Shown piece by piece: positions 46,884 through 63,819 of a stretch of DNA of 64,000 nt (positions are counted from its first letter, which is position 1; the number at the start of each line of letters is the position of its first letter). The position numbers were made by a program, and so were the translations under genes. The DNA lies in the NCBI GenBank assembly GCA_040882865.1, contig JBBEAN010000003.1, positions 33,085 to 97,084 of the forward strand, written 5' to 3'. The stretch is from Gammaproteobacteria bacterium (GTDB lineage: Bacteria; Pseudomonadota; Gammaproteobacteria; Natronospirales; JAIVGZ01). Under the pieces are notes generated by a model. It did no database searches, was not told the origin of the DNA, and saw nothing but the letters and a program-made list of their open reading frames with translations.

Positions 46884-47618
46884 TTGGCCATGCCTGACTT
46901 TCCGAAGCCTGATCATAACCAGCTCCTCTCGACGCTCACCGCGGCAGAGCGCGAACGTCTGTATCCGCACATGGAACTCGCGACCGTTTCATTGGGCCAA
47001 GTGCTACACCAACGCGGCGCCGACATAGAAGATGTCTATTTTCCGACAGACTCAATCGTTTCATTGCTGTACGTGATGGACGATGGTGCCTCCGCCGAAA
47101 TCTCAGTGGTCGGGCACGAGGGTGTCACGGGCGTCGGTCTGTGTATGGGCGCCGATATCTCCGCGAGCCAGGCGGTCGTCCAAAGCGCCGGCTATGCGTA
47201 TCGACTGCCGGGCAGCGTCCTGCGCGATGAGTTCCGCCGTAACGGCAGCCTCCATGACTGGATTCTGCGCTACTCACAAGCGCTGCTCGCGCAGATCGCG
47301 CAGACCGCGGTCTGCAACCGCCACCATACGGTCGACCAGCAACTGTGTCGCTGGGTGTTGTTGTCGCTCGACCGGCTGCCGACCAACAAACTGATCATGA
47401 CGCAACAACTCATCGCGAATATGTTGGGCGTACGTCGCGAGGGTGTCACCGAAGCGGCTGGCAAGTTGCAGAAGCTCGGCGTCATCCGATACAGCAGAGG
47501 ACGCATCACGGTGATCGACCGACCCCAGCTCGAAGCACTCTCATGCGAGTGTTACTCGGTGGTGAAGCGAGAGTTCGACCGGCTCGTCGCCACCCCGTAT
47601 ATCCGACAATCCGCCTGA
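46884..47618 (+). CDS. Crp/Fnr family transcriptional regulator (paralog 1)
   Basis: cNMP-binding-like barrel (VYFPTDSIVSLLYVMDDGASAEISVVGHEGVTG) plus a C-terminal HTH (MTQQLIANMLGVRREGVTEAAGKLQKLGVI). It ends with SCECY. Confidence 0.88.
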   Translation: MAMPDFPKPDHNQLLSTLTAAERERLYPHMELATVSLGQVLHQRGADIEDVYFPTDSIVSLLYVMDDGASAEISVVGHEGVTGVGLCMGADISASQAVVQSAGYAYRLPGSVLRDEFRRNGSLHDWILRYSQALLAQIAQTAVCNRHHTVDQQLCRWVLLSLDRLPTNKLIMTQQLIANMLGVRREGVTEAAGKLQKLGVIRYSRGRITVIDRPQLEALSCECYSVVKREFDRLVATPYIRQSA

Positions 47619-47628
47619 GGAAGATTCG

Positions 47629-48354
47629 ATGCCATCACATTCTCCCCACAATCACTTGCTCGATGCGCTGACAATCGACGAGAAGGACCGCCTGTTTCCG
47701 CACCTGGAATGGGTGCCGCTCGGACTCAGTGAGGTCCTGTATGAAACGAATAAGAAGCAGCACTGCGTCTATTTTCCGACCAGCGCAATCATCTCGCTGC
47801 TTTACGTGACCGAGGACGGTGCCTCGGCGGAAATCTCGATGGTCGGTAGCGAGGGCATGATTGGCATCGCACAGCTGACCGGTGACGGCACCATGCCGAA
47901 CCGTGCGGTCGTGCACAGCGCGGGCCATGCTTACCGCATCAAGGGTCACCTGTTGAAGCGAGAATTCTCCCGCAAAGGTCGGTTGCACGACATGTTGCTC
48001 CGCTACTCACAAACGCTGTTCGCTCAGACCGCGCAAACCGCCATGTGCAACCGTTTCCATACGGTGGACCAGCAACTCTGCCGCTGGCTGTTACTGTCAT
48101 TTGACCGGCTCGGCACCGATGAAATGGTCATGACCCAGGAGTTGATCGCAAACATGCTTGGCGTTCGCCGCGAGGGCGTCACGGAAGCGGCCGGCAGACT
48201 GCAGAAGGCGAACGTGATTCGCTATCGACGCGGACATATCCAGATGCTCGACCGTCTGCGGCTGGAGAAAAACTGCTGTGAGTGTTACGAGGCCGTCAAA
48301 GTCCAGACCGCGCGCTTGCTCGACATGAATCTACTGGACATGACTCAGCAGTAG
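47629..48354 (+). CDS. Crp/Fnr family transcriptional regulator (paralog 2)
   Basis: Colinear with paralog 1 and roughly half identical by eye. It has the same HTH and a CCECY motif near the C-terminus. Confidence 0.88.
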   Translation: MPSHSPHNHLLDALTIDEKDRLFPHLEWVPLGLSEVLYETNKKQHCVYFPTSAIISLLYVTEDGASAEISMVGSEGMIGIAQLTGDGTMPNRAVVHSAGHAYRIKGHLLKREFSRKGRLHDMLLRYSQTLFAQTAQTAMCNRFHTVDQQLCRWLLLSFDRLGTDEMVMTQELIANMLGVRREGVTEAAGRLQKANVIRYRRGHIQMLDRLRLEKNCCECYEAVKVQTARLLDMNLLDMTQQ

Positions 48355-48410
48355 CAACTTCGTTCGATACCGTACTGACAGCGACTGCCGCGCGGGGTAA
48401 TAAGCACATC

Positions 48411-49835
48411 ATGAAGCCAATACTCGCATTCGCGCTCGCCGCGACACTCCTTTTCGCCGCCTCCTGCTCGACGAACCCGGTCACGGGCCAAAGCCAGCTC
48501 GCACTTGTTTCAGAGAGCCAGGAAATCGAAATCGGTCGTCAAACCGCGGCGGCGGCCGAGGCCCAGATGGGCCTGGTCGATGACCCTGCTCTGCAGGAAT
48601 ACGTTCAGCGCATCGGCATGGTGATGGCGCGGGCGTCCGAGCGTCCTGAGCTGCCATGGCACTTCGGCGTCATCGACGACCCGACGCCCAACGCGTTCGC
48701 TGCGCCAGGTGGGTTCATCTATGTGACACGCGGCATGCTTTCCCTGATGAACAACGAGGCGGAGCTTGCGACTGTAATCGGACACGAGATTGGTCACGTG
48801 ACCGCGCGCCACTCTGTTGCCATGATCAGTCGGCAACAACTCGCACAAATCGGCCTCGGACTGGGCTCGGTGCTGAGCCCAGAAATCGCACAACTCGGCG
48901 AGCTCGCAAGCGCCGGGCTGTCGATGCTGTTCATGAGCTACGGTCGCGATGCGGAACGCCAGGCCGACGATCTGGGTTTCGGCTACGCGCTCGCGCAAGG
49001 CTACGACGTCTCACAGATGACCGATGTATTCGCATCGCTGCAACGTATCGGCGAGGCATCCGGCCGAAGCCCGGTACCCGCGTGGATGTCGACGCACCCG
49101 TACCCGGAAGAGCGCATCGTGCGTATCCAGAATCGTCTCGCGGGCGCAACTCTGCCGCTCGGCGCACGCGCGGGCGAAGACGAATACATGGCGCGTGTCG
49201 ATGGCCTGCCGTATGGCGAGAACCCGCGCAACGGTTACTTCGAAAACACCCGCTTCGTCCATCCAGACATGCGTTTCCAGGTCAATTTCCCGCAAGGTTG
49301 GATGACCCAAAACATGGCGCAGGCCGTAATGGCGGGCAGCCCGGACCAGGATGCCATCGTGCAACTTTCGCTCGCAAAAGGCACTCCCCAGGAGGCCGCG
49401 GCCGCGTTTCTCGGCCAGCAGGGGATTACGGCCGGCCCGGTGAATACGCGCTCGGTTAACGGCCTCAATGCCGCAACGGCGGAGTTCCAGGCACAGACCG
49501 AGCAAGGCGCGCTCGCCGGCGCTGTCAGCTTCATCACGCTCGACGAGCATACGTTCGGGATCGTTGCATACACCGGTGCGGATCGCCTCCCAAAGTACGC
49601 TGCTGCGTTCCAGGGTGTGTTTGATTCCTTCGGACGTCTGACCGACCCGCAGGCACTCGCGGTGCAAGCACCGCGCCTCTCGGTGATGCGCACGCCGAGG
49701 GCGATGTCGCTGCAGCAATTCAACGCGAGCTACCCATCGACCATTCCGCTCGACGAGCTTGCGCTCGTGAACCAACTCGTCGACGGCTCTGCGCTGATTC
49801 CCGCGGGCGCTCACGTAAAACGCGTGGTCAATTAA
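48411..49835 (+). CDS. M48 family zinc metallopeptidase lipoprotein
   Basis: Lipobox LLFAASC and the zinc motif VIGHEIGHVTARH. I trimmed it to ATG 48411 because the track ORF start overlaps the upstream regulator gene. Confidence 0.88.
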   Translation: MKPILAFALAATLLFAASCSTNPVTGQSQLALVSESQEIEIGRQTAAAAEAQMGLVDDPALQEYVQRIGMVMARASERPELPWHFGVIDDPTPNAFAAPGGFIYVTRGMLSLMNNEAELATVIGHEIGHVTARHSVAMISRQQLAQIGLGLGSVLSPEIAQLGELASAGLSMLFMSYGRDAERQADDLGFGYALAQGYDVSQMTDVFASLQRIGEASGRSPVPAWMSTHPYPEERIVRIQNRLAGATLPLGARAGEDEYMARVDGLPYGENPRNGYFENTRFVHPDMRFQVNFPQGWMTQNMAQAVMAGSPDQDAIVQLSLAKGTPQEAAAAFLGQQGITAGPVNTRSVNGLNAATAEFQAQTEQGALAGAVSFITLDEHTFGIVAYTGADRLPKYAAAFQGVFDSFGRLTDPQALAVQAPRLSVMRTPRAMSLQQFNASYPSTIPLDELALVNQLVDGSALIPAGAHVKRVVN

Positions 49836-49912
49836 GTGGGCCACCGCACGATTCTCCGCCGCGGAAATCGCTAAGGTTGGACTCCTCCCAATAAATCTAC
49901 CGGAGTTCAATC

Positions 49913-50215
49913 ATGCGCACGACCCCCTCTGCACAGAACGGCGAGCAACTCGACAGAAAGGTCGACCGTGCAGCCGACCAAGCCCACGACAAGATCGACC
50001 AGGCCTCGAATGCGGCACAACCGGCTGTCGATCGGCTCGCCGGAAAGGCCCACAACATGGTCGACAAGCTCGAAGCGAAAGGCGAGCAGTGGATGGAAGC
50101 CGAAGAAGAGATGATGGGCGAGATTCAGGCCTACGTCCGCCAACATCCGCTCCAGTCAGTCGGTATTGCCGTGGCCGGCGGCTTCCTCCTGAGCCGCATC
50201 CTCAGCTCAAGATGA
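49913..50215 (+). CDS. DUF883 (ElaB/YqjD/YgaM) family membrane-anchored stress protein
   Basis: 100 aa with a hydrophilic helical N-terminal part plus the C-terminal TM PLQSVGIAVAGGFLLSRIL. GGAG lies 9 nt upstream. Confidence 0.85.
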   Translation: MRTTPSAQNGEQLDRKVDRAADQAHDKIDQASNAAQPAVDRLAGKAHNMVDKLEAKGEQWMEAEEEMMGEIQAYVRQHPLQSVGIAVAGGFLLSRILSSR

Positions 50216-50565
50216 CCCCCGCACACCCCGGGCTTCTCGACGAAGCCCGGTTGCTGTTCACGGAAGCCCGTGGCCTCGCCCACGATCGGCTGAAGCTCGC
50301 CGCACTCGAGACCCGCCTCGCCGGGCAGAGTGTCGTCAGGATGCTCATCGCCGGGGTCGTCGCGGCGGTGATGGTAATCAGCACCTGGCTCGCGTTGGTG
50401 GGTATGGGCGTCGTCGCGCTCGTGGTCTACGGCGGCCTGACCGCGATCGCCGCGCTGGGCATCGCAGCGGTAGTCAACGCCGCCGCCGCCGCCGCGCTTT
50501 ATTTCGCGATCCGCAAGATGTCCCAGAACCTCGCTTTCCCACGAACCGTCGGAGGGCCGCACTGA
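50212..50565 (+). CDS. YqjE-like (phage holin family / DUF1469) membrane protein
   Basis: 117 aa and 2 TM helices, with an ATGA overlap to the DUF883 gene. The order matches E. coli yqjD-yqjE-yqjK. Confidence 0.75.
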   Translation: MTPAHPGLLDEARLLFTEARGLAHDRLKLAALETRLAGQSVVRMLIAGVVAAVMVISTWLALVGMGVVALVVYGGLTAIAALGIAAVVNAAAAAALYFAIRKMSQNLAFPRTVGGPH

Positions 50566-50981
50566 TGGGCCTGAAACACGAAGTCGCCGAGGCCGAACGT
50601 CAGGTCGAGATTCGTAGCGCACAACTGCAGGAGCACCTCTACGAGCTGCGGCACTCCTGGCGTTCGCGCATCAATCCCCGCGCGCTGGTGCTTGTGGGTG
50701 CCGCGGCCGGCGTCGTACTTGAGCAGTTCATCCGATATCGGAGCCACAAGCCCGTTGTCTACGAGTTGGCCCCCGGCGATGACCGACCACCACAGAAGCG
50801 CAGCAAGCACCGCATTTCGAGGGCCGCGCGCGCGCTACACTTATTGCCCATCGCGCAGCTCGCGGTGAGGAAATGGCTGTCGCGCGAAGCCGAACGCGAC
50901 GAGCGCGATCAGAGCCCGCGCTCGATCAACTTCGCGGACCATTCCATTACGCGCAAGGGTAACGGTCTCTCGCGCCATTGA
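50565..50981 (+). CDS. YqjK-like protein
   Basis: 138 aa with a coiled-coil N-terminus and one TM (ALVLVGAAAGVVL). It is the third gene of the yqjDEK-like unit, and its last 73 nt overlap the convergent cls gene. Confidence 0.6.
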   Translation: MGLKHEVAEAERQVEIRSAQLQEHLYELRHSWRSRINPRALVLVGAAAGVVLEQFIRYRSHKPVVYELAPGDDRPPQKRSKHRISRAARALHLLPIAQLAVRKWLSREAERDERDQSPRSINFADHSITRKGNGLSRH

Positions 50982-52378
50982 GCTAGCGGAACTCGGTCCG
51001 AATGCGCTAAATCGTCCGCGAACATCGCTTCCATTTCTCCCGCGAATTCGCGCCCAAGGATGACGGCATTCAGTTCGTCATTGTAGAGAAAGCTGCGCCA
51101 GTCGATGTTGCTTGAACCCACGGTCGACCAGACGCCGTCAATGACGGCGGTTTTCGCATGCATCACGGAGCCACGTCGTTCGAAAATTCTTACGCCGGCC
51201 TCCAGCAACTCCTCATAATAAGAACGACCGACGTGGAAAATGGGCCAACTGTCGCTGTTTGCCGGCATGATCAACTTGACGTCCACGCCCCGCGCCGCCG
51301 CTCCCTTCAACGCGTCGAGAAACTGTTCGTCCGGTGCGAAGTAAGCGATGGTAAGGTAAACGCTGTGCTCCGCGGACTGGATCGCCGCGAGCAAAGTCAA
51401 ATAAATAACACTGCGCTCGTCGTCCGGGGTGCTGCCAATCGCACGCACAATCTCGTCGCCGTGCGCGCGGAGCTCGGGGAAATAGGCACGATCGGGCAGG
51501 GGAGGCCCGTCCTGTTCAGTCCAGGTCTCGTGGAACAGCCGCTGAAACTCCGCTACAACGGGGCCGCTGATTTGCAGATGCGTGTCCCGCCATCCGGCAG
51601 GCCGTGCTGACGGCTTCCGTGAGCGGCTCATGAAGCTGCCGCTCGAGTACACCTCACTGATGTTGATGCCCCCGACGAACGCCGTGGCACCGTCGATGAC
51701 GAGCAACTTGCGATGGCCGCGGTGATTGAACTTCAGCGAGCGGGACTTCGGCGACAGCGGATTGATTGGGTTGAACTCGACGAGCCGAATACCGCCGTCG
51801 CGCAAGCGGTCGAAGAATTCTGTCGGCGTCTCGAGCGTAGCGAAACTGTCGTAAATGAGATTCACTTGGACGCCGTCGGCTTGTCGCTCGAGCAACAGGT
51901 CGGCGAACTCGCGCCCGACGTCGTCATCCTCGAAGATGTAGGTCTGCAGATTGATGTGGTCGGTTGCGGCCCGGATAGCTTTCATCATCGCCGCATACGT
52001 TGCGGGCCCGTCCTTCAGCAGACGGAGACGGTTACCACCGACGAGCGGACTGTCGGCGTTGATCGCCTGCTCGACCAACATGTGGCGGCCGAGAATGCCG
52101 CCCCCTTCTTCGGACTCTGTGACGATTTTCGGTGCAAGATGGGCCACGCGAAATTCCTTTTCGGCGTCAGGGAGCGCGGCGCAACCGTTGGTGGTCAACA
52201 ACAGCGCCACGACAAACGTGCCGACAACGCCGCAGAACCAGTAAGCCAGGGAGAGCCACCATCGGCGGCCCTCCCCGGACCGGACCGGTACCTCAGCTGA
52301 TCGTGAGCCCGCTTGCGTCCACGTTGCGGACACCACGGATGTTTTCCGCGAGGTCAATTGCGAGTTCCTTCTCATCAT
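50909..52378 (-). CDS. cls: phospholipase D family cardiolipin synthase
   Basis: Two HKD motifs (HRKLLVIDGATAFVGGIN and HAKTAVIDGVWSTVGSSN) and an N-terminal TM helix. No alternative start lies downstream of the BON stop. Confidence 0.88.
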   Translation of the reverse strand: MMRRNSQLTSRKTSVVSATWTQAGSRSAEVPVRSGEGRRWWLSLAYWFCGVVGTFVVALLLTTNGCAALPDAEKEFRVAHLAPKIVTESEEGGGILGRHMLVEQAINADSPLVGGNRLRLLKDGPATYAAMMKAIRAATDHINLQTYIFEDDDVGREFADLLLERQADGVQVNLIYDSFATLETPTEFFDRLRDGGIRLVEFNPINPLSPKSRSLKFNHRGHRKLLVIDGATAFVGGINISEVYSSGSFMSRSRKPSARPAGWRDTHLQISGPVVAEFQRLFHETWTEQDGPPLPDRAYFPELRAHGDEIVRAIGSTPDDERSVIYLTLLAAIQSAEHSVYLTIAYFAPDEQFLDALKGAAARGVDVKLIMPANSDSWPIFHVGRSYYEELLEAGVRIFERRGSVMHAKTAVIDGVWSTVGSSNIDWRSFLYNDELNAVILGREFAGEMEAMFADDLAHSDRVPLAQWRERPLPLRVMEWSAKLIERGL

Positions 52379-53261
52379 CGTTGTTGACTTCGCCGCTCAG
52401 CTTGACGACGCCCTCATCGACGTCCACGTCGATGTCGAACGCGCTCACCCAGCGCGACGTCATCAGGCTCGCTTTCACCTTCGTCGTGATCCAGGTATCG
52501 GACACTTCGTTGGTCAGGCTGTCCTCTTGTTCCGGTTCGTTCGCCTGCACGGTCTGGTCGACGATCGGGGCGCCGGACGATACCGTGCCGCTCGCGCCTG
52601 CCTGGGCGAGCGAGGTCGCACCCGCGTCTTCGTGGAAGTCGGCGTCAACTTCGATTTCGTTCACGACTGAACGGACACCGTCCGTGTTCGATGCGAGCTC
52701 CTCTGCGGACTGCTTCGCCTCTTCCGTCGTCGCGACGCCTGACAGCGTGACGACGCCGGCCTCGGTGGTGACGTTGGTGTTCAGCGCCTCAGCATCACGG
52801 CTCCAGAGAAGCTTGCCTTTCACCGATGCGGTGAGTACTGCGTCGTCGACGCGGTCACCGAAACTGCGGTCACCGTCTGCGCGGACCTCGGCCGTGTACT
52901 CCTCGTCGACTTCGATCTGGTTGTCGACCTCGTCGATTCCGTCGGCATTCATCGCGAGCGACTCCGCGAGATCCTTGTGGACCTCATCGCTCACCGTTCC
53001 GGACAGCGTCGCGGTGTTCTCCTCGACCTTGACGTCGATGTCACTTGACCGCAGCTGACGGTTCAGCGCGAAGGTGGTGGAAATCTGGCTCTCCTTACGC
53101 GCGGCGCTGACCTTACTGTCGGTTTCCACCGACACCCGGGCTTCGTCGCCCTTGTGGCGCTTGTCGCGTTTGTCGTCGTCACCTGCGAAGGCGTTGCCGG
53201 CGAGCGCCGTTGCCAACACCAGGCATGACGCCGCGGCTGCGCTGCGTGTGTAGATAGTCAT
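52293..53261 (-). CDS. secreted BON domain-containing protein (OsmY-like, three BON repeats)
   Basis: Signal peptide AASCLVLATALAGNAFA and three BON units (e.g. VKVEENTATLSGTV, VTTEAGVVTLSGVA, VDVDEGVVKLSGEV). GGAGG lies 6 nt upstream of the ATG. Confidence 0.88.
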   Translation of the reverse strand: MTIYTRSAAAASCLVLATALAGNAFAGDDDKRDKRHKGDEARVSVETDSKVSAARKESQISTTFALNRQLRSSDIDVKVEENTATLSGTVSDEVHKDLAESLAMNADGIDEVDNQIEVDEEYTAEVRADGDRSFGDRVDDAVLTASVKGKLLWSRDAEALNTNVTTEAGVVTLSGVATTEEAKQSAEELASNTDGVRSVVNEIEVDADFHEDAGATSLAQAGASGTVSSGAPIVDQTVQANEPEQEDSLTNEVSDTWITTKVKASLMTSRWVSAFDIDVDVDEGVVKLSGEVNNDDEKELAIDLAENIRGVRNVDASGLTIS

Positions 53262-53289
53262 GTTGTACCTCCATATGGTTGGAAATAAT

Positions 53290-53327
53290 CCTTGCCCGGT
53301 ACACGCCGTAGTGGCGGCCGGGCAAGG
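53290..53327 (-). terminator. strong hairpin between the PRC-barrel gene and the BON gene
   Basis: CCTTGCCCGG (53290-99) pairs with CCGGGCAAGG (53318-27), a perfect 10-bp stem. On the minus strand it is followed by AUUAUUUCC. It ends only 17 nt before the BON Shine-Dalgarno sequence. Confidence 0.5.
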
Positions 53328-53452
53328 AGGTTTTCAGGACGTTCGACTGGCGGGCGGACACCCTCGCGGCTGATTGCGCAGCGCGCCTGGATGCGTGCCG
53401 CCAGTCTTTTCGCTGTACCCTTGATCACGTCCTTGATCATGTGGGTCGTGGT

Positions 53453-53845
53453 TCAGTGGTGGGTGGCGGTTCCGTAATACGAGCGAACCTTGTTGGCCCA
53501 CACTTCGTCCCGCATATTGGGCCAGTCATCCTTGTCGAAACCCGGCGCATCCTTCAGCCGGTCCTTTTCCACGTTGAGCAGAAAGCGTTTGTTCCGCGTA
53601 TCGAGTATCAGCGCGCTCCACGGTACAGCGAACAGCTTGTCCGCCATGCCGAGGAAGCCGCCGAATGACAGGACCGCATAGGCGACGGAGCCATCGCTCA
53701 TGTCGAGCATGATCTCCTTGATATCACCGAGACCTTCTTCCTTATGGTTGAAGACGTCGGTGCCTATGAGGGTATCCGCGCCCATCAACTCCGGACCAGG
53801 GCCCTCATCGCGGCGCTTGTACATGCCGTGCGCGTCGCGGTCCAT
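53453..53845 (-). CDS. PRC-barrel domain-containing protein
   Basis: LIGTDVFNHKEEGLGDIKEIMLDMSDGSVAYAVLSFGGFLGMADKLFAVPW is a typical PRC-barrel stress protein. I prefer ATG 53845 over the track GTG 53854. Confidence 0.85.
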   Translation of the reverse strand: MDRDAHGMYKRRDEGPGPELMGADTLIGTDVFNHKEEGLGDIKEIMLDMSDGSVAYAVLSFGGFLGMADKLFAVPWSALILDTRNKRFLLNVEKDRLKDAPGFDKDDWPNMRDEVWANKVRSYYGTATHH

Positions 53846-53850
53846 GTAGT

Positions 53851-54030
53851 TCACCGCCGCTCCTCGCGGAACTCTTCCTTGGCATCGCCGTAACCCTTGC
53901 GAACACTGCCGGCAGTTTTCTCGACCTTACCTTTCGCTTCAAGGCTACGATCTCCGGTCACCCGGCCGGTGACCTCTTTGGTCTTGCCTTTCGCTTTTTG
54001 AAGGGTGCCTTTACCTTGCTGCTTGTTCAT
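53851..54030 (-). CDS. CsbD family general stress protein (59 aa, below the ORF-track cutoff)
   Basis: Hand translation gives MNKQQGKGTLQKAKGKTKEVTGRVTGDRSLEAKGKVEKTAGSVRKGYGDAKEEFREERR. GGAGG lies 4 nt upstream, and the stop is 5 nt before the PRC-barrel ATG. Confidence 0.8.
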   Translation of the reverse strand: MNKQQGKGTLQKAKGKTKEVTGRVTGDRSLEAKGKVEKTAGSVRKGYGDAKEEFREERR

Positions 54031-54106
54031 TTTGCCTCCAGATGTTCGAGCTTGACGTTCATGATGGCCGCGTCAGGGCGACGGGTCGGTACGAAAGCTA
54101 ACAGTG

Positions 54107-54319
54107 CTATTCCATCTCCTCGTCGGCGTCTCTTGCGGAAGCTTGGCGGCCCGCGAGGTTCTCGCCGCGATCACGTGACTGCTGGTTCTCGCGCTGGTTT
54201 TCGTGCTGCGTGCCAGCTTGCTGCTGCTGCTTGCCGGGCTGTGCGGGCTGGTCCGTCTGGCCCGGTTTGCCCTGCTGTTGCTGGTTCGGGTTCTGCGTAT
54301 TGTTGTTGCGGTCTTTCAT
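54107..54319 (-). CDS. Gln/Asn-rich hydrophilic, probably disordered small protein (70 aa)
   Basis: MKDRNNNTQNPNQQQQGKPGQTDQPAQPGKQQQQAGTQHENQRENQQSRDRGENLAGRQASARDADEEME. GGAGG lies 8 nt upstream of ATG 54319. It has no hydrophobic core, and I recognise no family. Confidence 0.6.
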   Translation of the reverse strand: MKDRNNNTQNPNQQQQGKPGQTDQPAQPGKQQQQAGTQHENQRENQQSRDRGENLAGRQASARDADEEME

Positions 54320-54492
54320 TGTTGCGCCCTCCTTCAAGGGTTGCGTATGTGGATGCGAATCAAGAGTGTTCCCGGCGGGGATTGTCGTCGGTTCGTCAGG
54401 TCACATTCGTTGCCTTGCGAACTGAACGGTGGCGGGCATATTTGAGATGCTCAACCAATTCACCTGCACCAAATAGAGGGCAATGCACGATC

Positions 54493-55119: not shown

Positions 55120-55122
55120 AAT

Positions 55123-55148: not shown

Positions 55149-55166
55149 TACATCACGATTGCCCGT

Positions 55167-55850: not shown

Positions 55851-55862
55851 ATCCCTCTCCTC

Positions 55863-56456: not shown

Positions 56457-56569
56457 CGGTCTGCTACTTTGACGGCCGCGCGGCTGAGCTTCCGTGCGGT
56501 ATCGCCCCTAAGGTGAGTGCGTGTGGTCCCGTACATACTGGGCGTCTGCTTCGGAGGTAGCGTGACCCC

Positions 56570-57277
56570 ATGCAGAACCGCCTGTTAGCAGCCCTGCCGC
56601 CGGATGAGTCCGCGCGTCTAGATCCGCACCTCACACTGGTGCCCATGACGCAGGGCATGGTCATCGACGACGCCGAGGACCATCTGTACTTCCCGGTCGA
56701 CTGCGTGGTCGCACTCCTTTACGAGCTCAGCGACGGCGCGAGCGCAGAGATTTCCTTGGTCGGCAATGAGGGCGTTGCGGGCATTGGATTATCGATCGGC
56801 GGAATCCCGACCCTGAACCGCGCCGTGGTCCAGACCGCCGGACACGCGCAAAAAGTCCGTGCGACAGTGCTGCACGAAGAATTCAACCGGGACGACAAAC
56901 TGCAACGACTCCTCTTTGGCTACACGCGCGCATTGTTCGCACAGATGGCCCAAACCGCCGCATGCAACTTGAGCCACCCGGTCCATCAACGCATGTGTCG
57001 CTGGATGCTGCTCACGCTCGACCGCGTTGTGTCGGACCGGCTCGTGATGGAACGTGACCTCGTCGCGTCCATCCTCGGCGTGCCGACGCATGAGGTCGAC
57101 GACGCGGTCGCGAAGCTCGCGCGCCTCGGCGCAGTCAGCGGTTCGCGCTCGCAAATGACCGTCCTCAACCGACCGCAACTCGAACGGCTCTGCTGCGAGT
57201 GTTATGCGCTCGTGAAGCACGAATCAGAGCGACTGTTGCACCCGGTCTCCCACCACAAACTTCGATCGATTATCTGA
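56570..57277 (+). CDS. Crp/Fnr family transcriptional regulator (paralog 3)
   Basis: MQNRLLAALPPDE... has the same architecture as paralogs 1 and 2 and carries a CCECY motif. Confidence 0.88.
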   Translation: MQNRLLAALPPDESARLDPHLTLVPMTQGMVIDDAEDHLYFPVDCVVALLYELSDGASAEISLVGNEGVAGIGLSIGGIPTLNRAVVQTAGHAQKVRATVLHEEFNRDDKLQRLLFGYTRALFAQMAQTAACNLSHPVHQRMCRWMLLTLDRVVSDRLVMERDLVASILGVPTHEVDDAVAKLARLGAVSGSRSQMTVLNRPQLERLCCECYALVKHESERLLHPVSHHKLRSII

Positions 57278-57279
57278 CC

Positions 57280-58026
57280 GTGAACAGACCCAGCGACAAT
57301 CCAGATTTCAGGCAATCAACGGCGACACCGCCGCCCCGTTTCGGGGGCGAGACATCGTCCTCGACGCTCTTGAACGAGCGCCTCGCCGCGCTGCCGCGCC
57401 ATGACCGTGACGCGATGCTCGAGCAATCCACGACCGTCGAATTGAAACTCGGCGAGGTACTCGCCGAGGCGGGCCAACCCGCGGCTTACGCCTACTTTCC
57501 CGTCGGCGGAATAATTTCGTTACTTGCGTCGGTCGACAAGAAGACCACGCTTGAAGTGGCCCTGGTCGGCTTCGAAGGGATGCTGGGGCTGTCGCTCGCA
57601 TTGGGCGCCGAGGGCGCTCCGTTGCGGGCGCGGGTCCGCGCCGCGGGCACCGCGCTCCGGATCGACGCCGCGACGTTCAAGCGTCTATTGGAGAACAGTC
57701 CGGAGATGCGTGCCGACCTGAATCGCTACGCGTGTGCCCAGCTCGCCGCAATCGCGCAGACCGCCGTCTGCACGCGCTTCCACCTCGTCGAGGAGCGGCT
57801 CGCGCGCTGGTTGCTGATGATCCATGACCGCGCGGGCAGCGACCACCTCGAGCTCACGCACGGTCTTCTCGCTGAAATGCTCGGGGTCCGCCGCAGCGGC
57901 ATCACGACGGCCGCGGGCGTGCTCCGTCAACGCGGCTTCATTAAGTACACGCGCGGCGACATCACGATCGTTGATCGGGAGGGTCTTGAAGCCGCCAGCT
58001 GCGCCTGCTATCGAATTGTTCGTTAG
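57280..58026 (+). CDS. Crp/Fnr family transcriptional regulator (paralog 4)
   Basis: Same barrel plus HTH (LTHGLLAEMLGVRRSGITTAAGVLRQRGFI), ending in SCACY. The start is uncertain. GTG 57280 lies right after the paralog 3 stop, and the track ATG 57199 would overlap it by 79 nt. Confidence 0.8.
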   Translation: MNRPSDNPDFRQSTATPPPRFGGETSSSTLLNERLAALPRHDRDAMLEQSTTVELKLGEVLAEAGQPAAYAYFPVGGIISLLASVDKKTTLEVALVGFEGMLGLSLALGAEGAPLRARVRAAGTALRIDAATFKRLLENSPEMRADLNRYACAQLAAIAQTAVCTRFHLVEERLARWLLMIHDRAGSDHLELTHGLLAEMLGVRRSGITTAAGVLRQRGFIKYTRGDITIVDREGLEAASCACYRIVR

Positions 58027-58092
58027 CGCACGGACCGCCCAAGTCTGCTGCCGTACCTTCTAAAACGTCAAAACAATTGAAGGGCGAGCGTC

Positions 58093-58239
58093 ATGTTAGA
58101 AACGATTGTCATCATCCTGTTGGTTCTCTGGGTGCTCGGGCTCGTCTCGTCATACACGATGGGCGGACTCATCCACATCCTGTTGGTGATCGCCATCGTG
58201 ATCTTTTTGCTGCGGGTCATCCGCGGACGGAGGGTTTGA
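58093..58239 (+). CDS. lmo0937 family small membrane protein (48 aa, below the ORF-track cutoff)
   Basis: Hand translation gives MLETIVIILLVLWVLGLVSSYTMGGLIHILLVIAIVIFLLRVIRGRRV, which matches the family pattern (GGLIHILLVIA...RGRRV). Confidence 0.75.
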   Translation: MLETIVIILLVLWVLGLVSSYTMGGLIHILLVIAIVIFLLRVIRGRRV

Positions 58240-58240
58240 A

Positions 58241-58462
58241 ATGGATGGATTACGGATACTCGCAATCGCGCTGTTGATCGGCGGTACGCTCGCGCTCGTT
58301 TACGGCGGTTTCACGTACACGAAAGACCGGGATACTGCAGACCTTGGGCCCCTCGAGATCTCGGTCGAAGACCGTGAACGCGTGAATGTCCCGGTCTGGG
58401 CGGGCGTAGCGGCAATCGTAGCCGGTGGGCTGATTCTCGTGGGGGCTGGCCGCAGACGGTGA
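58241..58462 (+). CDS. small two-TM membrane protein
   Basis: 73 aa with two hydrophobic helices flanking an acidic loop. It starts 2 nt after the lmo0937-like stop. Confidence 0.6.
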   Translation: MDGLRILAIALLIGGTLALVYGGFTYTKDRDTADLGPLEISVEDRERVNVPVWAGVAAIVAGGLILVGAGRRR

Positions 58463-58478
58463 TGCTAGAATCTGGCGG

Positions 58479-59090
58479 ATGAAATCCCTTCCCCGCCTGC
58501 TGTTGACCGGCCTGCTCACGCTGCTGCCGGTCGTCGTCACAATCGCAATCCTCGCTTGGCTCGCCTCGTCTCTCGAGGCGATGCTGGGCGGCCTCATCGC
58601 ATGGCTGCTTCCGGACGGCGCGTACCGCGCCGGCATGGGACTCTTCGCCAGCCTCTTCCTGATACTCGCGCTAGGCGCGATCATGACCACGTGGCTCGCA
58701 CAGCAATTGCTCGTGATGTTCGAGCGTGCGATGTTGCGCCTGCCGGTCATCAACAGCCTGTACGGTGCGGTGAAGGACGTGACCGCCTTGTTCTCCCCAG
58801 AGAGCAAGCGCCAGTTCAATTTGGTCGTGACTTTCACGCTGCCGGGCACCGACTCGAAATTGATTGGTTTCGTGACGCGGGAGGACTGCTCCGACCTGCC
58901 GACCGGGCTCAATGACCTCGGGATGGTCGCGGTCTACTTGCCCATGAGCTATCAGGTCGGCGGGTACATGCTATTCCTGCCGCGCGACCAACTCGAGCCA
59001 CTGAACATGCCCACCTCAGACGCATTGCGGTTCGTACTCACCGCCGGCGTCACGCGCTCAGCGAAGCCCACCGCGTCGAGCGACGGTTAG
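58479..59090 (+). CDS. DUF502 domain-containing membrane protein
   Basis: LLTGLLTLLPVVVTIAILAWL ... GFVT ... VYLPMSYQVGGYMLFLPRD is a typical DUF502 layout. Confidence 0.8.
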   Translation: MKSLPRLLLTGLLTLLPVVVTIAILAWLASSLEAMLGGLIAWLLPDGAYRAGMGLFASLFLILALGAIMTTWLAQQLLVMFERAMLRLPVINSLYGAVKDVTALFSPESKRQFNLVVTFTLPGTDSKLIGFVTREDCSDLPTGLNDLGMVAVYLPMSYQVGGYMLFLPRDQLEPLNMPTSDALRFVLTAGVTRSAKPTASSDG

Positions 59091-59156
59091 CGAACAGACT
59101 CGCTGCGCGGCGATTCCTATCGTGGTCCTTGTTGCATAACCTAAACGAGGGCTTTC

Positions 59157-59699
59157 GTGATGAAAAATATCAAGTCTTTCCCGGTCACCGCGGTGTGTGC
59201 GTTGGCGGTCACGCTCGTCGCCGGCTGCGCGAACCTGCCCGGGACGAATGAAGAACAGGGCGTGGTCATCGGTGGCGTCACCGGCGCCGCTGCGGGTGCA
59301 GCTGTGGCCGGAAGCGGCCACCGCACACTGGGTGCGCTTCTCGGCGGCATCATCGGTGCGGGCAGCGGATACATGATCGGAGCGCGCCGCGACCGTATCC
59401 AGGGCACCCCCGAGGACCAGCAGGCCGCGCAAGCCGCCATCAGCCGGGCCCAGGCGGATCCGGCGACCGTCGCGGACGTACACACGTCCACGACGGCCGA
59501 CCTCAACAAAGATGGTTTCGTGACGGCCGATGAGGTCATCGCGATGTCCGACGCCGGCTTGCGGGACGACGAAATCGTCACCCGCCTCCGGGCGACCGGG
59601 CAGGTGTTCGAACTCACCTCTACCGAGCGCCAGCACCTGTTGAACAACGGCGTGCCGCTTGAGGTCGTTGAGGAGATGAATACCATCAACATTGCATGA
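59157..59699 (+). CDS. lipoprotein with glycine-zipper segment and an EF-hand-like loop
   Basis: Lipobox LVAGC and a Gly-zipper (GGVTGAAAGAAVAGSG...GALLGGIIGAGSGYMIG). The loop DLNKDGFVTADE fits the 12-residue EF-hand pattern DxNxDGxVxxxE. Confidence 0.7.
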   Translation: MMKNIKSFPVTAVCALAVTLVAGCANLPGTNEEQGVVIGGVTGAAAGAAVAGSGHRTLGALLGGIIGAGSGYMIGARRDRIQGTPEDQQAAQAAISRAQADPATVADVHTSTTADLNKDGFVTADEVIAMSDAGLRDDEIVTRLRATGQVFELTSTERQHLLNNGVPLEVVEEMNTINIA

Positions 59700-59780
59700 A
59701 GCGGATGAGGCTGGACAGGGCGGCCTGTGAGGGCGTCCTGTTCAGCCAAGCTTCAGCTTCGCCGCGGTACGGTGTGAGCC

Positions 59781-60962
59781 ATGAACGCACTCACTCGATT
59801 GCTCTGCACCGCGGCGCTCGTCGCCGTGACCGTGTTCGCGAACTCCGCGGCGGCGGCCGACGAACCCATTTACACACAGGCCGAGCTCGACCAGATGCTC
59901 GCGCCCGTCGCACTGTATCCCGACACGGTCCTCACCCACGTACTGATCGCAGCGACCTACCCCGTGCAGGTCGTGAGGGCTGCGCGCTGGTCGGCCGAGA
60001 ATCCCGGGCTCGAGGGTGATGCCGCGCTCGCTGCGGTCGACGACCGCGACTGGGATGCTAGTGTGAAGGCGCTCGTCGCATTTCCGGAACTGCTCGCACG
60101 GATGAACGAAGACCTCGAGTGGACGCAGCGCATCGGCGATGCGTTCCTCGTGCAGGAAGCTGCTGTGTTGGATACTGTCCAGACATTACGCACGCGTGCG
60201 TACAACGCCGGCAACCTGAAGTCGTCGGAGCAAATTCGCGTGGTCCGCGAGCGTGAAACCATCGTGATCCAACCGACGGTCGAGCGAATCGTCTATGTGC
60301 CAGTGTACGACACTCGTGTCGTGTATGGCCCTTGGTGGTGGTCGGCGCATCCTCCGGTTCATTGGTCGTGGCCGGGCCGTCATTACAGTTCAGTCGGGTT
60401 CTACTGGGGTCATGGTGTGCATGTGCGGCCAGCGTTCTACTACAGCTCATTCCATTGGACGAACCGCCACATCGTCCGTGGCGGCGGCCATCGCTGGCAT
60501 CACCAACCTCGGTATCGCCAGCCGCACTACCGCCAGAGCTACGACCGTCCACGCGTGCGGGCGAACAAGCCGCCGGTTCGTCGCGGCGTCGTGGGCGCCC
60601 AGGATGGATTGCAACGACCGCCAGTGACGGCAGAGCGTCGTGCGACGAGCAGCCGCCCGTTCGTCCAGCAACGGCGTGCGACGAGCAGCCGTCCGGTCGT
60701 CACGAGTGCGCCGCGGTCGGTGAGTCGACCCGTGTCGTCGCCGGCGCGATCGGCGACACCTCGAGCTGCTGTGCCACGTGCGGTTACCCCTCGTGCTGCG
60801 ACGCCGCGTGCACCGCGCGCGTCGGTCAGAAGCCCCGCTGCGGGGAACGCGGTTCCGATGGCGAAGCCGACGGCACGCGCGCCGGCGCCGTCGAACCGAA
60901 GCGCGCCGGCCGCCGCGCCGCGCCAACAAACCAGTCGTCCGGCGCGTCAGAAGGACCGCTGA
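59781..60962 (+). CDS. DUF3300 domain-containing secreted protein with Arg/Pro-rich repetitive tail
   Basis: Signal peptide followed by LDQMLAPVALYPDTVLTHVLIAATYP, a DUF3300 hallmark. The tail carries RRATSSRPFVQQ / RRATSSRPVVTS and TPRA-type repeats. Confidence 0.8.
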   Translation: MNALTRLLCTAALVAVTVFANSAAAADEPIYTQAELDQMLAPVALYPDTVLTHVLIAATYPVQVVRAARWSAENPGLEGDAALAAVDDRDWDASVKALVAFPELLARMNEDLEWTQRIGDAFLVQEAAVLDTVQTLRTRAYNAGNLKSSEQIRVVRERETIVIQPTVERIVYVPVYDTRVVYGPWWWSAHPPVHWSWPGRHYSSVGFYWGHGVHVRPAFYYSSFHWTNRHIVRGGGHRWHHQPRYRQPHYRQSYDRPRVRANKPPVRRGVVGAQDGLQRPPVTAERRATSSRPFVQQRRATSSRPVVTSAPRSVSRPVSSPARSATPRAAVPRAVTPRAATPRAPRASVRSPAAGNAVPMAKPTARAPAPSNRSAPAAAPRQQTSRPARQKDR

Positions 60963-63150
60963 CGCCACCACTCCGGTCCAACTGTTGCAGCAGTCTTCGG
61001 ACCGCGGGGGGGCCTGAGAGATGGAACCGCGCAGCGGTCTCGGCGAGCCCGACGCGTACGGTATACGCAGATGACGGCATTACCCGGAACATGTCTTCGT
61101 CCGTCCAGTCGTCGCCGACACACAGCACGAATTCATGTGATTTTCCTTCGAGCCAATCAACCGCCGCGCTGCCTTTGTTCACGCCGGCCGCGCGCACCTC
61201 GATGACCTTGTTACCCTCAATGACCTGTACGTCGATGTTGCGCGTGAATCCGGTCAAGTCGTCGAGCAGTTCACGCGTGCGCATCGCGGCCTGCTCCGGA
61301 TCCGCCCGGCGGTAGTGCCACGCGAGTGAGAATTCTTTCTGCTCGAGGAGCGCGCCGGGTAGCCGATCGACGTATCGCTCGAGAATCGTTCGAATCCGGT
61401 CTTTCCATTCCGTCTCGATTGGTCGGCGCAAACGCCATTCACCGTCGACCGACCGCATCCACGCACCGTGCTCGGCGATCAGCGAGACGGGTAAATCACC
61501 GAACCATCGCTCCAGGTCGGCGCGCGGGCGGCCGCTGATGATGACCGCGTCGTTGCTCGGCCGGCGCCCAATGGCTTCAAGAAGTTCCAGTAGTTCGTCG
61601 TCCGGCGCCGCATTCGCTGGCTTGTCGGAGAACGGCACCAGCGTGCCATCGTAATCAAGCAGCAGCGCGCGTCGGTGTGCGCTGTCGAACGACTGAACCA
61701 ACTGCGCGCGCGTCTCTCCGGTCAGCCGCGTCGCACGACGCTCTGCGTCCCCCTTTTCCGAATCCGCCATTGCACCAGTGAAGTCTGCCGCCCATCGGTT
61801 GACGTCGTAGCGTCGCAAGCGGTCCTGCATCAATGCATTCCGCCGGACCTGCTCGTCGATGGGCATCTCCAGCGCGCGCGCAATCGCATCTGCGAATTCA
61901 TCTCCGTGGTACGGGTTGACCGTCAGCGCTTCAGGCATCTCCTTCGCTGCGCCCGCCATCTCGCTGAGCACAAGCACACCGGTCCGGTCGATGCGCGAAG
62001 CTACGAATTCTTTTGCGACGAGGTTCATCCCGTCGCGCAGCGGCGTAATCAACGCAACGTCGCACGCGCGATAGAGCGGGATGATTTCGTCGAACGGGAG
62101 ATTGCGGTACTGATAGACCAATGGCGTCCAATCGACCGTGCCGAACTCACCGATGATCGATCCGACGGTCTGCTCAATCTCCCGCTTCATCTGCCGATAG
62201 CTCTCTACCCCCGTGCGCGAAGGTGCGACCGAGACGAGAAACGTCACCTTGCCATGCCACTCCGGGTTCTGACGCAGAAATCGCTCGTATCCTCGCAATC
62301 GGTTGATCAGACCCTTCGTGTAGTCAAGCCGGTCGACGGAGAAAATCAGCTTCTGCCCGTGGCATTGTTCGCGCAACTTCGCGACCCGCTGCTCCGTTTC
62401 CTCGGATGCCGCCGACTCCGCGATGCGTGCATAGTCGATGCCCATCGGGAAACTATCGACACGCACCGCGCGGTCACCGATGGCGAGGCGTCCGAGCTTG
62501 TGCTCGTGGCCGACCGTTCTGAGCACGGACGTCAGGAAGTCGCGTGTGTAATCGTGCGTGTGAAAGCCAACGAGGCTCGCCCCAAGAACGCCGTTGATAA
62601 GCTCCGCGCGCCACGTCTCCGGCAAAAGCCGGAACAGCTCATACGACGGAAACGGAATGTGCAGGAAAAAGCCAATGGGCAGCGTCGGGAACCGCTGCCG
62701 GAGCATTTCGGGGAGCAGCATCAACTGATAGTCGTGCACCCATACGTGGTCGCCCGGCTCGAGCACGCCCGTCAGATGATCGGCAAACGCCTCGTTCACC
62801 CGCCGGTATTCCGCCCAGCCCTCGTCATCGTAATGAACCAGATTCTGGAAATAGTGGAAAAGCGGCCAGAGGGTCTTGTTGCAGAACCCGTGGTAAAAAC
62901 GCTCGATACTCTCCGGAGCCAGAAACACCGGCGACGCGTTGTACCCGCGCGCGTGCTCGCGCACGGCGTCGCGCTGATTCTGTGCGACGTGCGCGCCGGG
63001 CCAGCCGACCCAGAGGAATGGTTGCTCTGCCTGTTGCATATAGCTCCAGAGACCCGTCGAGAGGCCACCCGCACTCATTGTGAACTTCGGGGTCCGCCGT
63101 TCGAATGCCGTCGTGAACGGCAGGCGGTTTGAGACGACAACGAGGCGCAT
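60826..63150 (-). CDS. otsA: bifunctional trehalose-6-phosphate synthase (GT20) / trehalose-phosphatase fusion
   Basis: The N-terminus is [12 protein letters not shown]... with an OtsA core ([21 protein letters not shown]). The C-terminal HAD phosphatase has [11 protein letters not shown] and [10 protein letters not shown]. The last ~45 codons overlap the DUF3300 gene. Confidence 0.92.
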
Positions 63151-63632
63151 CAGGCGATTGTGTGTTTCTTGAGCGAACTCGGCGCATCAAGATGCGCGCC
63201 ATCGTGTACGCCAACACCCAGCCGATCGACAAGCTCGCCGCCGAGCCACGCAGTCACGGTCGCGACCGCACCGCCGCAGAGTGCCAGCAACAGCGCAATC
63301 ACACCGGGATCGGCGGGAACCTCACGCCGCAGTGCCCAGCTTCCGAGAAATAGAATGATGACGAGCACATTGCCGACACCGTGCATCGCCCCGACCGATT
63401 TCGCGCGCGTACCGGCCGGTATCGAAAGCCAATCGATCGTGCCGAACGGCGCGGCCACGAGGCCGCCGATAATGCCCGCCGAAATCAGCCAGAATGCGAC
63501 CACAGCCATGGTCTCGTTGCCGCCAACCGCGTGGATCACGTCGAATATGACCGCGGTCGCAAGCAGACCGACTGGGAAAACGACCAGCATCTGGTGGATA
63601 GGGTGGCCGAGGAGCTTCATTTTGCTGTCCAT
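63150..63632 (-). CDS. DUF2231 domain-containing membrane protein
   Basis: LLGHPIHQMLVVFPVGLL hallmark and 4 TM helices. Its stop overlaps the otsA ATG (TGATG). I prefer ATG 63632 (GGAGA upstream) to the track GTG 63677. Confidence 0.8.
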   Translation of the reverse strand: MDSKMKLLGHPIHQMLVVFPVGLLATAVIFDVIHAVGGNETMAVVAFWLISAGIIGGLVAAPFGTIDWLSIPAGTRAKSVGAMHGVGNVLVIILFLGSWALRREVPADPGVIALLLALCGGAVATVTAWLGGELVDRLGVGVHDGAHLDAPSSLKKHTIA

Positions 63633-63651
63633 TAGGGTTTTCTCCGCGGGT

Positions 63652-63819
63652 TTAGACCGGTGATTTTCGTACTTCACGCGGCGGGCTTATGTTCGGTGGA
63701 CCGCTTTGCGCGAGATCGCGGGTACAGCCCAAGGTCCAAGAGGGCGGATCGCTCGCCGGGAAGCTCTCCTCGAGGTTCTCATCGATTTCGGATTCGGTGA
63801 TGTCGAGTTCGCCGCTCAT
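63652..63819 (-). CDS. small acidic protein (55 aa) with SFPASDPPSW motif (below the ORF-track cutoff)
   Basis: Hand translation gives MSGELDITESEIDENLEESFPASDPPSWTLGCTRDLAQSGPPNISPPREVRKSPV. Its ATG overlaps the stop of the upstream gene (ATGA). Confidence 0.5.
   Translation of the reverse strand: MSGELDITESEIDENLEESFPASDPPSWTLGCTRDLAQSGPPNISPPREVRKSPV

Follow-up and report, generated by a model that had tools for sequence, protein, structure and literature searches.

Four Crp/Fnr paralogs and a conserved, predicted palindromic operator in a 17-kb stress-gene cluster of a gammaproteobacterium

Four Crp/Fnr-type regulators lie among stress-related genes on contig JBBEAN010000003.1 of a Gammaproteobacteria bacterium (assembly GCA_040882865.1). 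Do they control the genes around them? The window analyzed here is the whole 64,000-nt stretch at contig positions 33,085-97,084; the cluster in question occupies its positions 46,884-63,819, directly after the FtsX-type permease gene ybbP (44323-46812). A sequence-only reading had described these 17 kb as a stress, dormancy and envelope island organized around two tandem pairs of Crp/Fnr paralogs, a system without described counterpart. The best-supported reading, to which we give a probability of roughly 0.6 as a whole, is that the region is a native, vertically inherited cluster of chromosomal genes with general-stress, envelope and desiccation-type functions; part of the cluster would be the direct regulon of its own Crp/Fnr paralogs acting as class II activators. 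The four paralogs and their arrangement as two tandem pairs were borne out by Pfam and by their coordinates:

crp1, 46890-47618, + strand, 242 aa; HTH_Crp_2 E=2.8e-14, cNMP_binding E=3e-5; most conserved, canonical type of the subfamily
crp2, 47629-48354, + strand; 57% identical to crp1; recognition helix VRREGVT kept
crp3, 56570-57277, + strand; HTH_Crp_2 26.6 bits against a cut-off of 27
crp4, 57280-58026, + strand; second widespread type of the subfamily; exact start uncertain

Operator motif

Motif discovery in the island's intergenic regions had been proposed with the sequence-only reading, and it returned a conserved palindromic operator. Dyads (inverted repeats) were sought in the 250-nt upstream regions of 145 regulator genes, which come from 81 loci. 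The top dyad families, TGTGCG-N4-CGCACA and TATGT-N10-ACATA, are one 20-bp palindrome with the consensus T-a-T-G-T-n-C-G-c-T-A-g-C-G-n-A-C-A-t-A (TaTGTnCG-N4-CGnACAtA), which is found upstream of regulator genes in 60 of the 81 loci. A position weight matrix (PWM) was built from 97 sites in the loci of other genomes and was not trained on the window. It has 282 matches of at least 14 bits in the 1.32 Mb of loci, compared with 5.7±2.0 in block-shuffled DNA and 6.4±3.4 for column-permuted palindromic PWMs. Site density falls from 0.75 per kb within 500 nt of a regulator to 0.035 per kb beyond 8 kb.

All six window matches of at least 10 bits lie in the 1,290 nt of island intergenic DNA, spread over five intergenic regions, and they are the six best in the 64 kb; positions 1-46800 contain none. 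Shuffles of the 1,290 nt gave a mean of 0.03 such matches and a maximum of 2 (2,000 shuffles). The sites are as follows, with hexamer positions counted in nt from the site center and the presence of a Shine-Dalgarno (SD) sequence given for the gene:

58015-58034, operator ATTGTTCGTTAGCGCACGGA, the strongest, 18.3 bits; TACCTT at +29.5; center 68.5 nt from the DUF5670 ATG, SD present
48359-48378, operator TTCGTTCGATACCGTACTGA, 14.3 bits; TAATAA at +29.5; center 42.5 nt from the M48 peptidase ATG, no SD
56491-56537, operator pair between the divergent sortase and crp3 genes, at 56491 (14.3 bits) and, 27 bp on, at 56518 (13.9 bits); for the second, TAGCGT at +30.5; center 42.5 nt from the ATG of crp3, no SD
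54086-54105, operator TCGGTACGAAAGCTAACAGT, 12.3 bits; CATCAT at +29.5; center 65.5 nt upstream of the CsbD ATG, SD present
54388-54440, weak operator-like sites at 54388 (6.7 bits) and 54421 (10.3 bits), between the genes for the Gln-rich protein and superoxide dismutase (sod)

The sites were compared with those of the relatives L088 (~90% identity), L086 (~70% identity) and, in part, L004:

crp3 pair: window 14.3/13.9 bits; L088 14.3/13.9; L086 and L004 19.3/17.7
Site after crp4: window 18.3 bits; L088 19.1; L086 15.9
M48 site: window 14.3 bits; L088 18.2; in L086 the genes overlap and there is no intergenic region
CsbD site: window 12.3 bits; L088 13.0; L086 4.1
Weak site of the 54388 type: window 6.7 bits; L088 6.7; L086 7.2; position kept in relatives

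A separate palindrome, TaCGGT-GTTC-ACCGGA, is found at 46836-46851, 44-45 nt upstream of the crp1 ATG, and has a perfect copy, TCCGGTAATGACCGGA (TCCGGT-AATG-ACCGGA), at the same offset in L004 (9950-9965). No further copy of TCCGGT-N4-ACCGGA occurs in the window or in the loci, and it was rejected as a second island-wide motif because it does not recur. As a candidate operator, it may serve a different factor or crp3, the divergent paralog. Since the palindrome before crp1-crp2 is a different one, this operon may sit upstream in a cascade.

The hexamer CCGTAC, which recurs in the intergenic regions, was tried as a -10 element of extracytoplasmic function (ECF) type and rejected, as no consistent -35 element accompanies it. 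Its copies are right half-sites (CGnACA), except at 58054, where it belongs to the -10 box TACCTT.

Promoter geometry

The distance between operator and promoter was determined in 132 sites oriented towards their downstream gene. TANNNT starts at +29.5 in 29 of them, against a background of ~2 per position, and at +30.5 and +28.5 in a further 9 and 6. With the -10 hexamer at -12 to -7, an offset of +29.5 puts the site center at -41.5. Textbook class II activators of the CRP/FNR family bind at this position, their site replacing the -35 element, and the geometry predicts class II Crp/Fnr activation. A palindromic operator, often at -41.5, is expected of a Crp/Fnr protein and was thus found computationally, in the motif and in the -10 box at +29.5. 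No sigma-70 consensus promoter was detected in the 17 kb (46700-64000), where shuffles gave 3.5 expected.

Window sites 42.5 nt from an ATG belong to genes without SD, and those 62-68 nt away to genes with one. Before M48 (48398-48413) and crp3 (56558-56572), a -10-like hexamer ends 6-7 nt before the ATG and no SD is seen. The missing SD and the nearby -10 box suggest leaderless mRNAs for both genes; the M48 transcript is probably leaderless.

The same palindrome could instead be a repression operator, on which the paralogs would sit until released under stress. We consider this unlikely. The M48 and crp3 sites are just 42.5 nt from the start codon, where normal leaders would put them over the core promoter, but genes at this distance without SD fit leaderless starts at +1. 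Repressors, too, typically have autoregulatory sites before their own genes; yet the -10 hexamer is fixed at the class II distance of +29.5 nt, the site occupies the -35 position, and no promoters containing a -35 element were found.

Occurrence in other genomes

The same module was sought in 80 loci from other genomes, which span Gamma- and Betaproteobacteria, Spirochaetota and one member of Rhodospirillales. All open reading frames (ORFs) of the loci were clustered into families by all-against-all comparison. Recurrent regulator neighbors are CsbD-like, BON, DUF3309, DUF4398 plus OmpA, cardiolipin synthase (cls), orf73-like, DUF5670, PRC, SPFH, ferritin-like, Transgly_assoc, DUF883 and superoxide dismutase (SOD) genes. 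At least one such family is present in 38 of the 80 loci. Their density is 1.2-2.0 per 10 kb at 0.5-4 kb from a regulator versus 0.1-0.4 farther off; they are 5-10 times denser within 4 kb than beyond. Counted as loci with a site upstream over loci carrying the family, the operator precedes CsbD in 12/18, DUF4398 in 5/6, BON families in 5/7 and 5/11, SPFH in 4/5, DUF3309 in 4/7, DUF5670 in 4/5, cls in 3/6, ferritin-like genes in 3/4 and SOD in 2/3. On plasmid p2 of Burkholderia sp. FERM BP-3421, which has an independent annotation by the Prokaryotic Genome Annotation Pipeline (PGAP), the regulator's neighbors on either side are annotated as 'BON domain-containing', 'YSC84-related', 'CsbD family' and 'DUF3309 family', and operator sites lie in the gaps among these genes.

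These neighbors bear on a second alternative, that the cluster is an ordinary stationary-phase or general-stress regulon of RpoS or ECF type, contiguous by chance, in which the paralogs merely autoregulate or act elsewhere. Its families do match those that RpoS controls in E. coli, sigma-B in Bacillus and EcfG in Alphaproteobacteria, half of the island intergenic regions carry no operator, and crp1-crp2 has its own conserved palindrome. However, operators kept in relatives stand before the non-regulator genes M48, CsbD and DUF5670, and distant taxa have sites before CsbD, BON, DUF3309, DUF4398 and ferritin-like genes, which makes this reading improbable. The RpoS holoenzyme uses the same -10 box, so sigma-factor and Crp/Fnr control are not mutually exclusive.

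In some Beta- and Gammaproteobacteria, the regulators are followed immediately downstream by genes for PAS-GGDEF-EAL proteins, or for CHASE3-PAS hybrid kinases together with a REC-PAS protein (L021 1138-2955; L026 10835-12667; L031 10198-12030; L061 12005-15612). These neighbors hint at an input from cyclic di-GMP (c-di-GMP) or a phosphorelay. No PAS-GGDEF-EAL or CHASE3-PAS kinase gene is present in the window. A 'histidine kinase' neighbor cluster obtained by single linkage was discarded as heterogeneous, PAS-GGDEF-EAL proteins and CHASE3-PAS hybrid kinases having been joined through their PAS domains. A ~2,800-aa protein of GH94/glucoamylase type also adjoins family members (L090, plasmid pKLC102, 207-8720; L080 7695-16058; L094 9292-14699) and may be a cyclic-glucan synthase or phosphorylase.

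Conservation and origin of the cluster

The same contig was found in three sequencing runs. Orthologs are ~70% identical in two metagenome-assembled genomes (MAGs) labelled Xanthomonadaceae and ~90% identical in one closer MAG. The gene order is kept in all: ybbA-ybbP-crp1-crp2-M48-DUF883-holin-138aa-cls-BON-PRC-CsbD-small-SOD-LPXTG-sortase-crp3-crp4-(DUF5670)-orf73-DUF502-...-DUF3300-ots. The stretch from the Gly-zipper gene to the SFPASDPP gene (59160-63819) is likewise syntenic in relatives. Because the same order is found beside ybbA/ybbP at both ~70% and ~90% identity, the clustering is not chance, and the linkage of regulators and stress genes, on which the sequence-only reading had staked its idea, holds in related genomes. 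All four paralogs have 1:1 orthologs in the ~70% relative, with identities of 73% for crp1, 77% for crp2, 70% for crp4 and just 55% for crp3.

The word island does not hold in the sense of acquired DNA. Members of the regulator family occur on plasmids and chromids (pKLC102; replicons of Burkholderia, Cupriavidus and Rhizobium), and G+C at third codon positions (GC3) averages 0.745 in the island versus 0.776 in 37 upstream genes (crp2, 0.74; Mann-Whitney p = 0.016). The lower third-position GC bias that had been remarked on is thus barely borne out; the difference of 0.03 is marginal and was dropped as an island signal, being too small to mean much. The order including the ybbA/ybbP flank is identical at ~70% identity, the four paralogs are orthologous 1:1, no tRNA is found in the window, and no mobility or integrase family turned up in Pfam scans of the region. 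Neither atypical composition, nor mobility genes or a border tRNA, nor patchy presence in relatives was seen; it is very unlikely that the cluster came in by horizontal transfer as a genomic island with regulators of its own.

Past the point where the window ends, the cluster of L086 goes on (16276-20694) with an S41 peptidase, an MscS channel, a cytochrome b and LEA_2, so the stress neighborhood may reach beyond the window's end.

A large Crp/Fnr subfamily

The regulators belong to a subfamily of 3,651 clusters at 50% identity (exhaustive phmmer search, E<=1e-30). A word-indexed search gave at least 8,000 matches, at ~68% identity in many taxa. Genome matches with 59-75% identity to crp1 come from Gamma- and Betaproteobacteria, Spirochaetota and one member of Rhodospirillales. 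The closer relatives include P. aeruginosa pKLC102 and replicons of Burkholderia, Cupriavidus and Ralstonia; weaker ones (30-40% identity) are on replicons of Rhizobium, Sinorhizobium, Microvirga, Nostoc and Gemmatirosa. NCBIfam has no model specific to the subfamily, NtcA being the best but insignificant match. No relative above 20% identity was found in the PDB, where the best sequence match covers the helix-turn-helix (HTH) only, and no characterized member of the subfamily was found. E. coli YeiL was rejected as a relative (18% identity; hhalign probability 3% against the family profile), and for Bcam1349, the c-di-GMP-binding Crp/Fnr protein of B. cenocepacia that was considered as a possible member, a 50-kb stretch of chromosome 2 at its guessed position contains no homolog. 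Adjacent regulator pairs, mostly a crp1-type with a crp4-type, are present in 39 of 81 loci; the tandem pairs, which had seemed special to this locus, are a general habit of the family.

Within the window, the other three paralogs are 57, 46 and 39% identical to crp1, and of 141 regulators in other loci, 35 match crp4 best. An N-terminal beta-barrel of cNMP-binding type is indicated in crp1, crp2 and crp4 by cNMP_binding matches of E 3e-5 to 1e-6, near or under the Pfam cut-off. A long dimerization helix and a C-terminal winged HTH follow (HTH_Crp_2 E 1e-13 to 1e-16 for the same three). The AlphaFold2 (AF2) model of crp1 has a mean predicted local distance difference test (pLDDT) score of 91 and the Crp/Fnr fold, with template modeling (TM) scores of 0.72-0.75 to CRP, GlxR and FNR. 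It places strands at 29-107, helices at 120-145, 172-179 and 183-195, and the wing at 199-208.

The hallmark of the subfamily is C-x3-H ending the dimerization helix together with C-E-C-Y after the wing. Residue conservation was scored in 97 cluster representatives 43-61% identical to crp1. C142 and C221 are invariant; H146, C219 and Y222, as well as R182, R183 and E184 of the recognition helix, are at least 90% conserved. In the AF2 model, C142 and H146 close the dimerization helix (120-145), and C219 and C221 are at the junction of two extra C-terminal helices. The invariance of this family-wide Cys/His set hints at a switch that works through thiols or metal (redox), and not at cyclic AMP (cAMP) as the signal. 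The contacts that CRP makes with cAMP (E72, R82, S83, T127, S128) were compared in alignments read by eye: E77-G78 aligns with CRP E72, and the Arg of the cAMP pocket is present in crp2-4 and is Q in crp1, outside the columns conserved at 90% or more.

crp3 stands apart. In it and its orthologs (L086 9154-9903), VRRE/SG(V/I)T is replaced by GVPTHEVD or GVGADELA, and the R-R-E recognition residues are lost. The Cys/His signature is kept, and crp3 is the fastest-evolving of the four.

No FNR-type N-terminal Cys cluster is present: crp1, crp2 and crp4 have no Cys in the first ~80 residues, and the single non-conserved Cys of crp3 near residue 45 (FPVDC) does not form one. The FNR box TTGAT-N4-ATCAA has no exact copy in the window and is not enriched in island intergenic DNA, where one 1-mismatch box, TGGATGCGAATCAA at 54350-54363 just upstream of the Gln-rich gene, is the sole one. 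These results concern the closest analog, the Burkholderia cenocepacia low-oxygen-activated (lxa) locus, which has Anr-like regulators and an FNR-type TGA-N6-TCA box and has been shown to be induced by low oxygen (Sass et al. 2013, PMC3721108). Like the present region, lxa is a large contiguous stress and persistence cluster with BON-type phospholipid-binding proteins, Crp/Fnr regulators inside it and a shared palindromic motif at many intergenic points. In contrast, lxa is rich in universal stress proteins, of which there are none here, and the regulators here are of another subfamily with the box TGTnCG-N4-CGnACA. An oxygen-sensing FNR/Anr-type dormancy locus is hardly to be expected here: the concept of stress genes clustered with Crp/Fnr regulators is similar (PMC3721108) and there is the single FNR-like box at 54350, but the paralogs have no N-terminal Cys cluster, are at most 20% identical to FNR structures, and go with an enriched motif other than TTGAT-N4-ATCAA.

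Proposed mechanism

From the above we infer a binder for the motif, activation rather than repression, a signal and a role for crp3. The paralogs that keep an R-R-E/S recognition helix, crp1, crp2 and crp4, would bind TGTnCG-N4-CGnACA as dimers. From a site centered 41.5 bp upstream of the start, the dimers would activate promoters that have a -10 but no -35 box. Predicted direct targets are the M48 unit, CsbD-PRC, the Gln-rich gene, possibly sod, sortase-LPXTG, crp3-crp4 and DUF5670-orf73-DUF502. Activation of crp3-crp4 from its own promoter would be positive feedback, and the DUF883 unit may be expressed by read-through from M48. With its DNA-reading residues lost and the fastest evolution, crp3 is probably a modulator (heterodimer partner), or else might read another site.

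Several observations weigh against a direct regulon. Only part of the 17 kb carries the operator, and six of ~11 island intergenic regions have no convincing site. The best PWM scores are 6.8 bits before crp1, 5.8 before DUF883, -1.5 before BON/cls, 5.5 before the Gly-zipper gene and -6.2 before DUF3300, and the otsAB-DUF2231 unit has no upstream site within the window. In the ~70% relative, the sites at CsbD and SOD are weaker. The -10 box is at class II distance in just ~1/3 of oriented sites, so some sites may act otherwise, as class I sites or in repression. Counts near regulators are partly circular because the PWM was trained on regulator-adjacent sites, and 97 of the 282 sites are training sites. 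The palindrome could also be bound by another factor.

A bolder form of the proposal is tentative, and we regard it as doubtful. The subfamily would serve as master regulator of a general stress or desiccation response that is independent of sigma factors, in many Beta- and Gammaproteobacteria and Spirochaetota, and probably in Alphaproteobacteria and Cyanobacteria. It would sense redox state or metal through a new C-x3-H/C-E-C-Y site bridging hinge and C-terminal helix. Here it would have expanded to a four-paralog circuit, with a DNA-blind crp3 tuning by heterodimerization and crp3-crp4 as a positive-feedback latch.

Relation to known systems

No description of this subfamily, operator or regulon was found in the open-access literature, and nothing relevant was found there that links Crp/Fnr regulators with CsbD, BON, PRC, DUF883, DUF3309 or desiccation. 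The claim that no system of this organization has been described stands to that extent; the general principle, a locus that groups stress or dormancy genes with Crp/Fnr regulators, has a precedent in, for example, lxa (PMC3721108).

The predicted arrangement resembles that of class II promoters of E. coli CRP and FNR in its homodimer fold, palindrome arms, -41.5 center and R-E residues. Those regulators bind 16-20 bp palindromes with TGT...ACA arms, use the -41.5 site and have R-E starting the recognition helix. Different here are the inner CG dinucleotides, the 4-bp spacer core and the lack of an FNR Cys cluster; unlike CRP, crp1 has Q at the position of R82, and there is an extra C-terminal helix with C-E-C-Y. 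Cyanobacterial NtcA, a 2-oxoglutarate sensor that controls nitrogen genes, binds GTA-N8-TAC. Where n is A/T, this site agrees with the outer arms TGTA...TACA of the present palindrome, but the identity to NtcA is only ~20%. YeiL of E. coli is a Cys-containing, autoregulated stationary-phase member of Crp/Fnr from another subfamily. CprK, FLP and Clp/Bcam1349 (c-di-GMP) give precedent for redox-active cysteines or non-cAMP ligands in the Crp/Fnr fold; in thiol-switched members of the CprK/FLP type, the cysteine positions differ from those of this subfamily.

The gene content recalls the RpoS, sigma-B and EcfG/PhyR regulons, which share CsbD/YjbJ, OsmY/BON, ElaB/YqjD (DUF883), YeaQ/Transgly_assoc, Dps/ferritin-like, OtsBA, SOD and PRC-barrel proteins. 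Those regulons depend on alternative sigma factors, whereas a one-component activator with its own operator is implied here. CsbD, BON/OsmY, DUF883, DUF3309, PRC-barrel and Transgly_assoc are among the commonest bacterial 'general stress' genes, and what is understood of their control comes, to our knowledge, only from RpoS, sigma-B or EcfG in few models. The present evidence speaks for a one-component activator of Crp/Fnr type whose members number in the thousands, share 60-70% identity across classes and frequently occur as tandem copies, with an operator before these stress genes. The newly inferred operator precedes at least five transcription units of the cluster and hints at a sigma-factor-independent stress regulon, now open to testing. 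The motif is defined well enough for regulon prediction in any genome with the family; C142, H146, C219, C221 and R182-E184 are the residues for mutation, and cultured carriers include Burkholderia, Cupriavidus, Ralstonia, P. aeruginosa pKLC102 and Methylococcus. If true, the proposal would extend a classic family of transcription factors by a new global regulator of stress and by a new sensory variant.

Gene content

Gene families in the window were checked with Pfam, and further profiles with NCBIfam. The window has 60-70% G+C, and no RNA genes were detected in it by Rfam and tRNA scans. Nearly all families named in the sequence-only reading are found by Pfam: Peptidase_M48, DUF883_C, two PLDc domains (cls), three BON domains, PRC, CsbD, Fe/Mn SOD, sortase, DUF5670 (the lmo0937 family), DUF502, Gly-zipper, DUF3300, fused GT20 and trehalose-phosphatase, and DUF2231. 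The genes other than the regulators are as follows:

48411-49835, + strand, M48 peptidase lipoprotein; Peptidase_M48 E=1.4e-38; lipoprotein signal ...LFAASC read directly
49913-50981, + strand, DUF883 (ElaB/YqjD-like) protein, Holin-X-like membrane protein and 138-aa protein (yqjD/E/K-like unit); Pfam and public gene calls
50909-52336, - strand, cls, synthase of phospholipase D (PLD) type; two PLDc domains, Pfam
52293-53261, - strand, 3xBON OsmY-like protein; Pfam
53453-53854, - strand, PRC-barrel protein; Pfam; operon with CsbD
53851-54030, - strand, CsbD; Pfam; operon with PRC-barrel (53453-54030)
54107-54319, - strand, Gln-rich disordered protein, 70 aa; called ORF with no family match
54493-55119, + strand, Fe/Mn superoxide dismutase; Sod_Fe_N and Sod_Fe_C
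55167-55850, - strand, LPATAG-anchored sortase substrate; LPATAG, hydrophobic stretch, then RRR tail
55863-56456, - strand, sortase; Sortase E=1.9e-29; TLVTC
58093-59090, + strand, DUF5670 peptide, 73-aa membrane protein (orf73) and DUF502; Pfam
59160-59699, + strand, Gly-zipper lipoprotein; Pfam; EF-hand-like loop DLNKDGFVTADE
Within 59160-63819, DUF3300 (+), fused OtsA-OtsB (-), DUF2231 (-) and SFPASDPP small protein (-)

Some assignments stood in part. The yqjE-like member has a Holin-X-like analog, whose Pfam score of 26.6 bits is under the cut-off. The proteins called yqjK-like, Gln-rich and SFPASDPP are real ORFs, called in public assemblies, without a Pfam or NCBIfam match. An EF-hand in the Gly-zipper lipoprotein can be read directly from the motif, but no Pfam model reports it. 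Sortase and substrate are both present, in the order opposite to that implied. The pair is of the proteobacterial type, with the catalytic sequence 'LTLVTCYPF' and an adjoining substrate that ends in ...LPATAGPLPWLAIGGALSLLGGIGVGLRRRFQAK; a terminator hairpin is present at 55123-55148.

A strong G+C hairpin between PRC and BON (53288-53330), whose position is kept in L004 (16215-16250), is probably the CsbD-PRC terminator. A BON/cls promoter, if there is one, would have only ~30 nt left. In two places the 3' ends of convergent genes overlap, in low-complexity tails: the 138-aa protein and cls by 73 nt (50909-50981), and DUF3300 and otsAB by 137 nt (60826-60962), the latter likewise in L088 (13432-13586).

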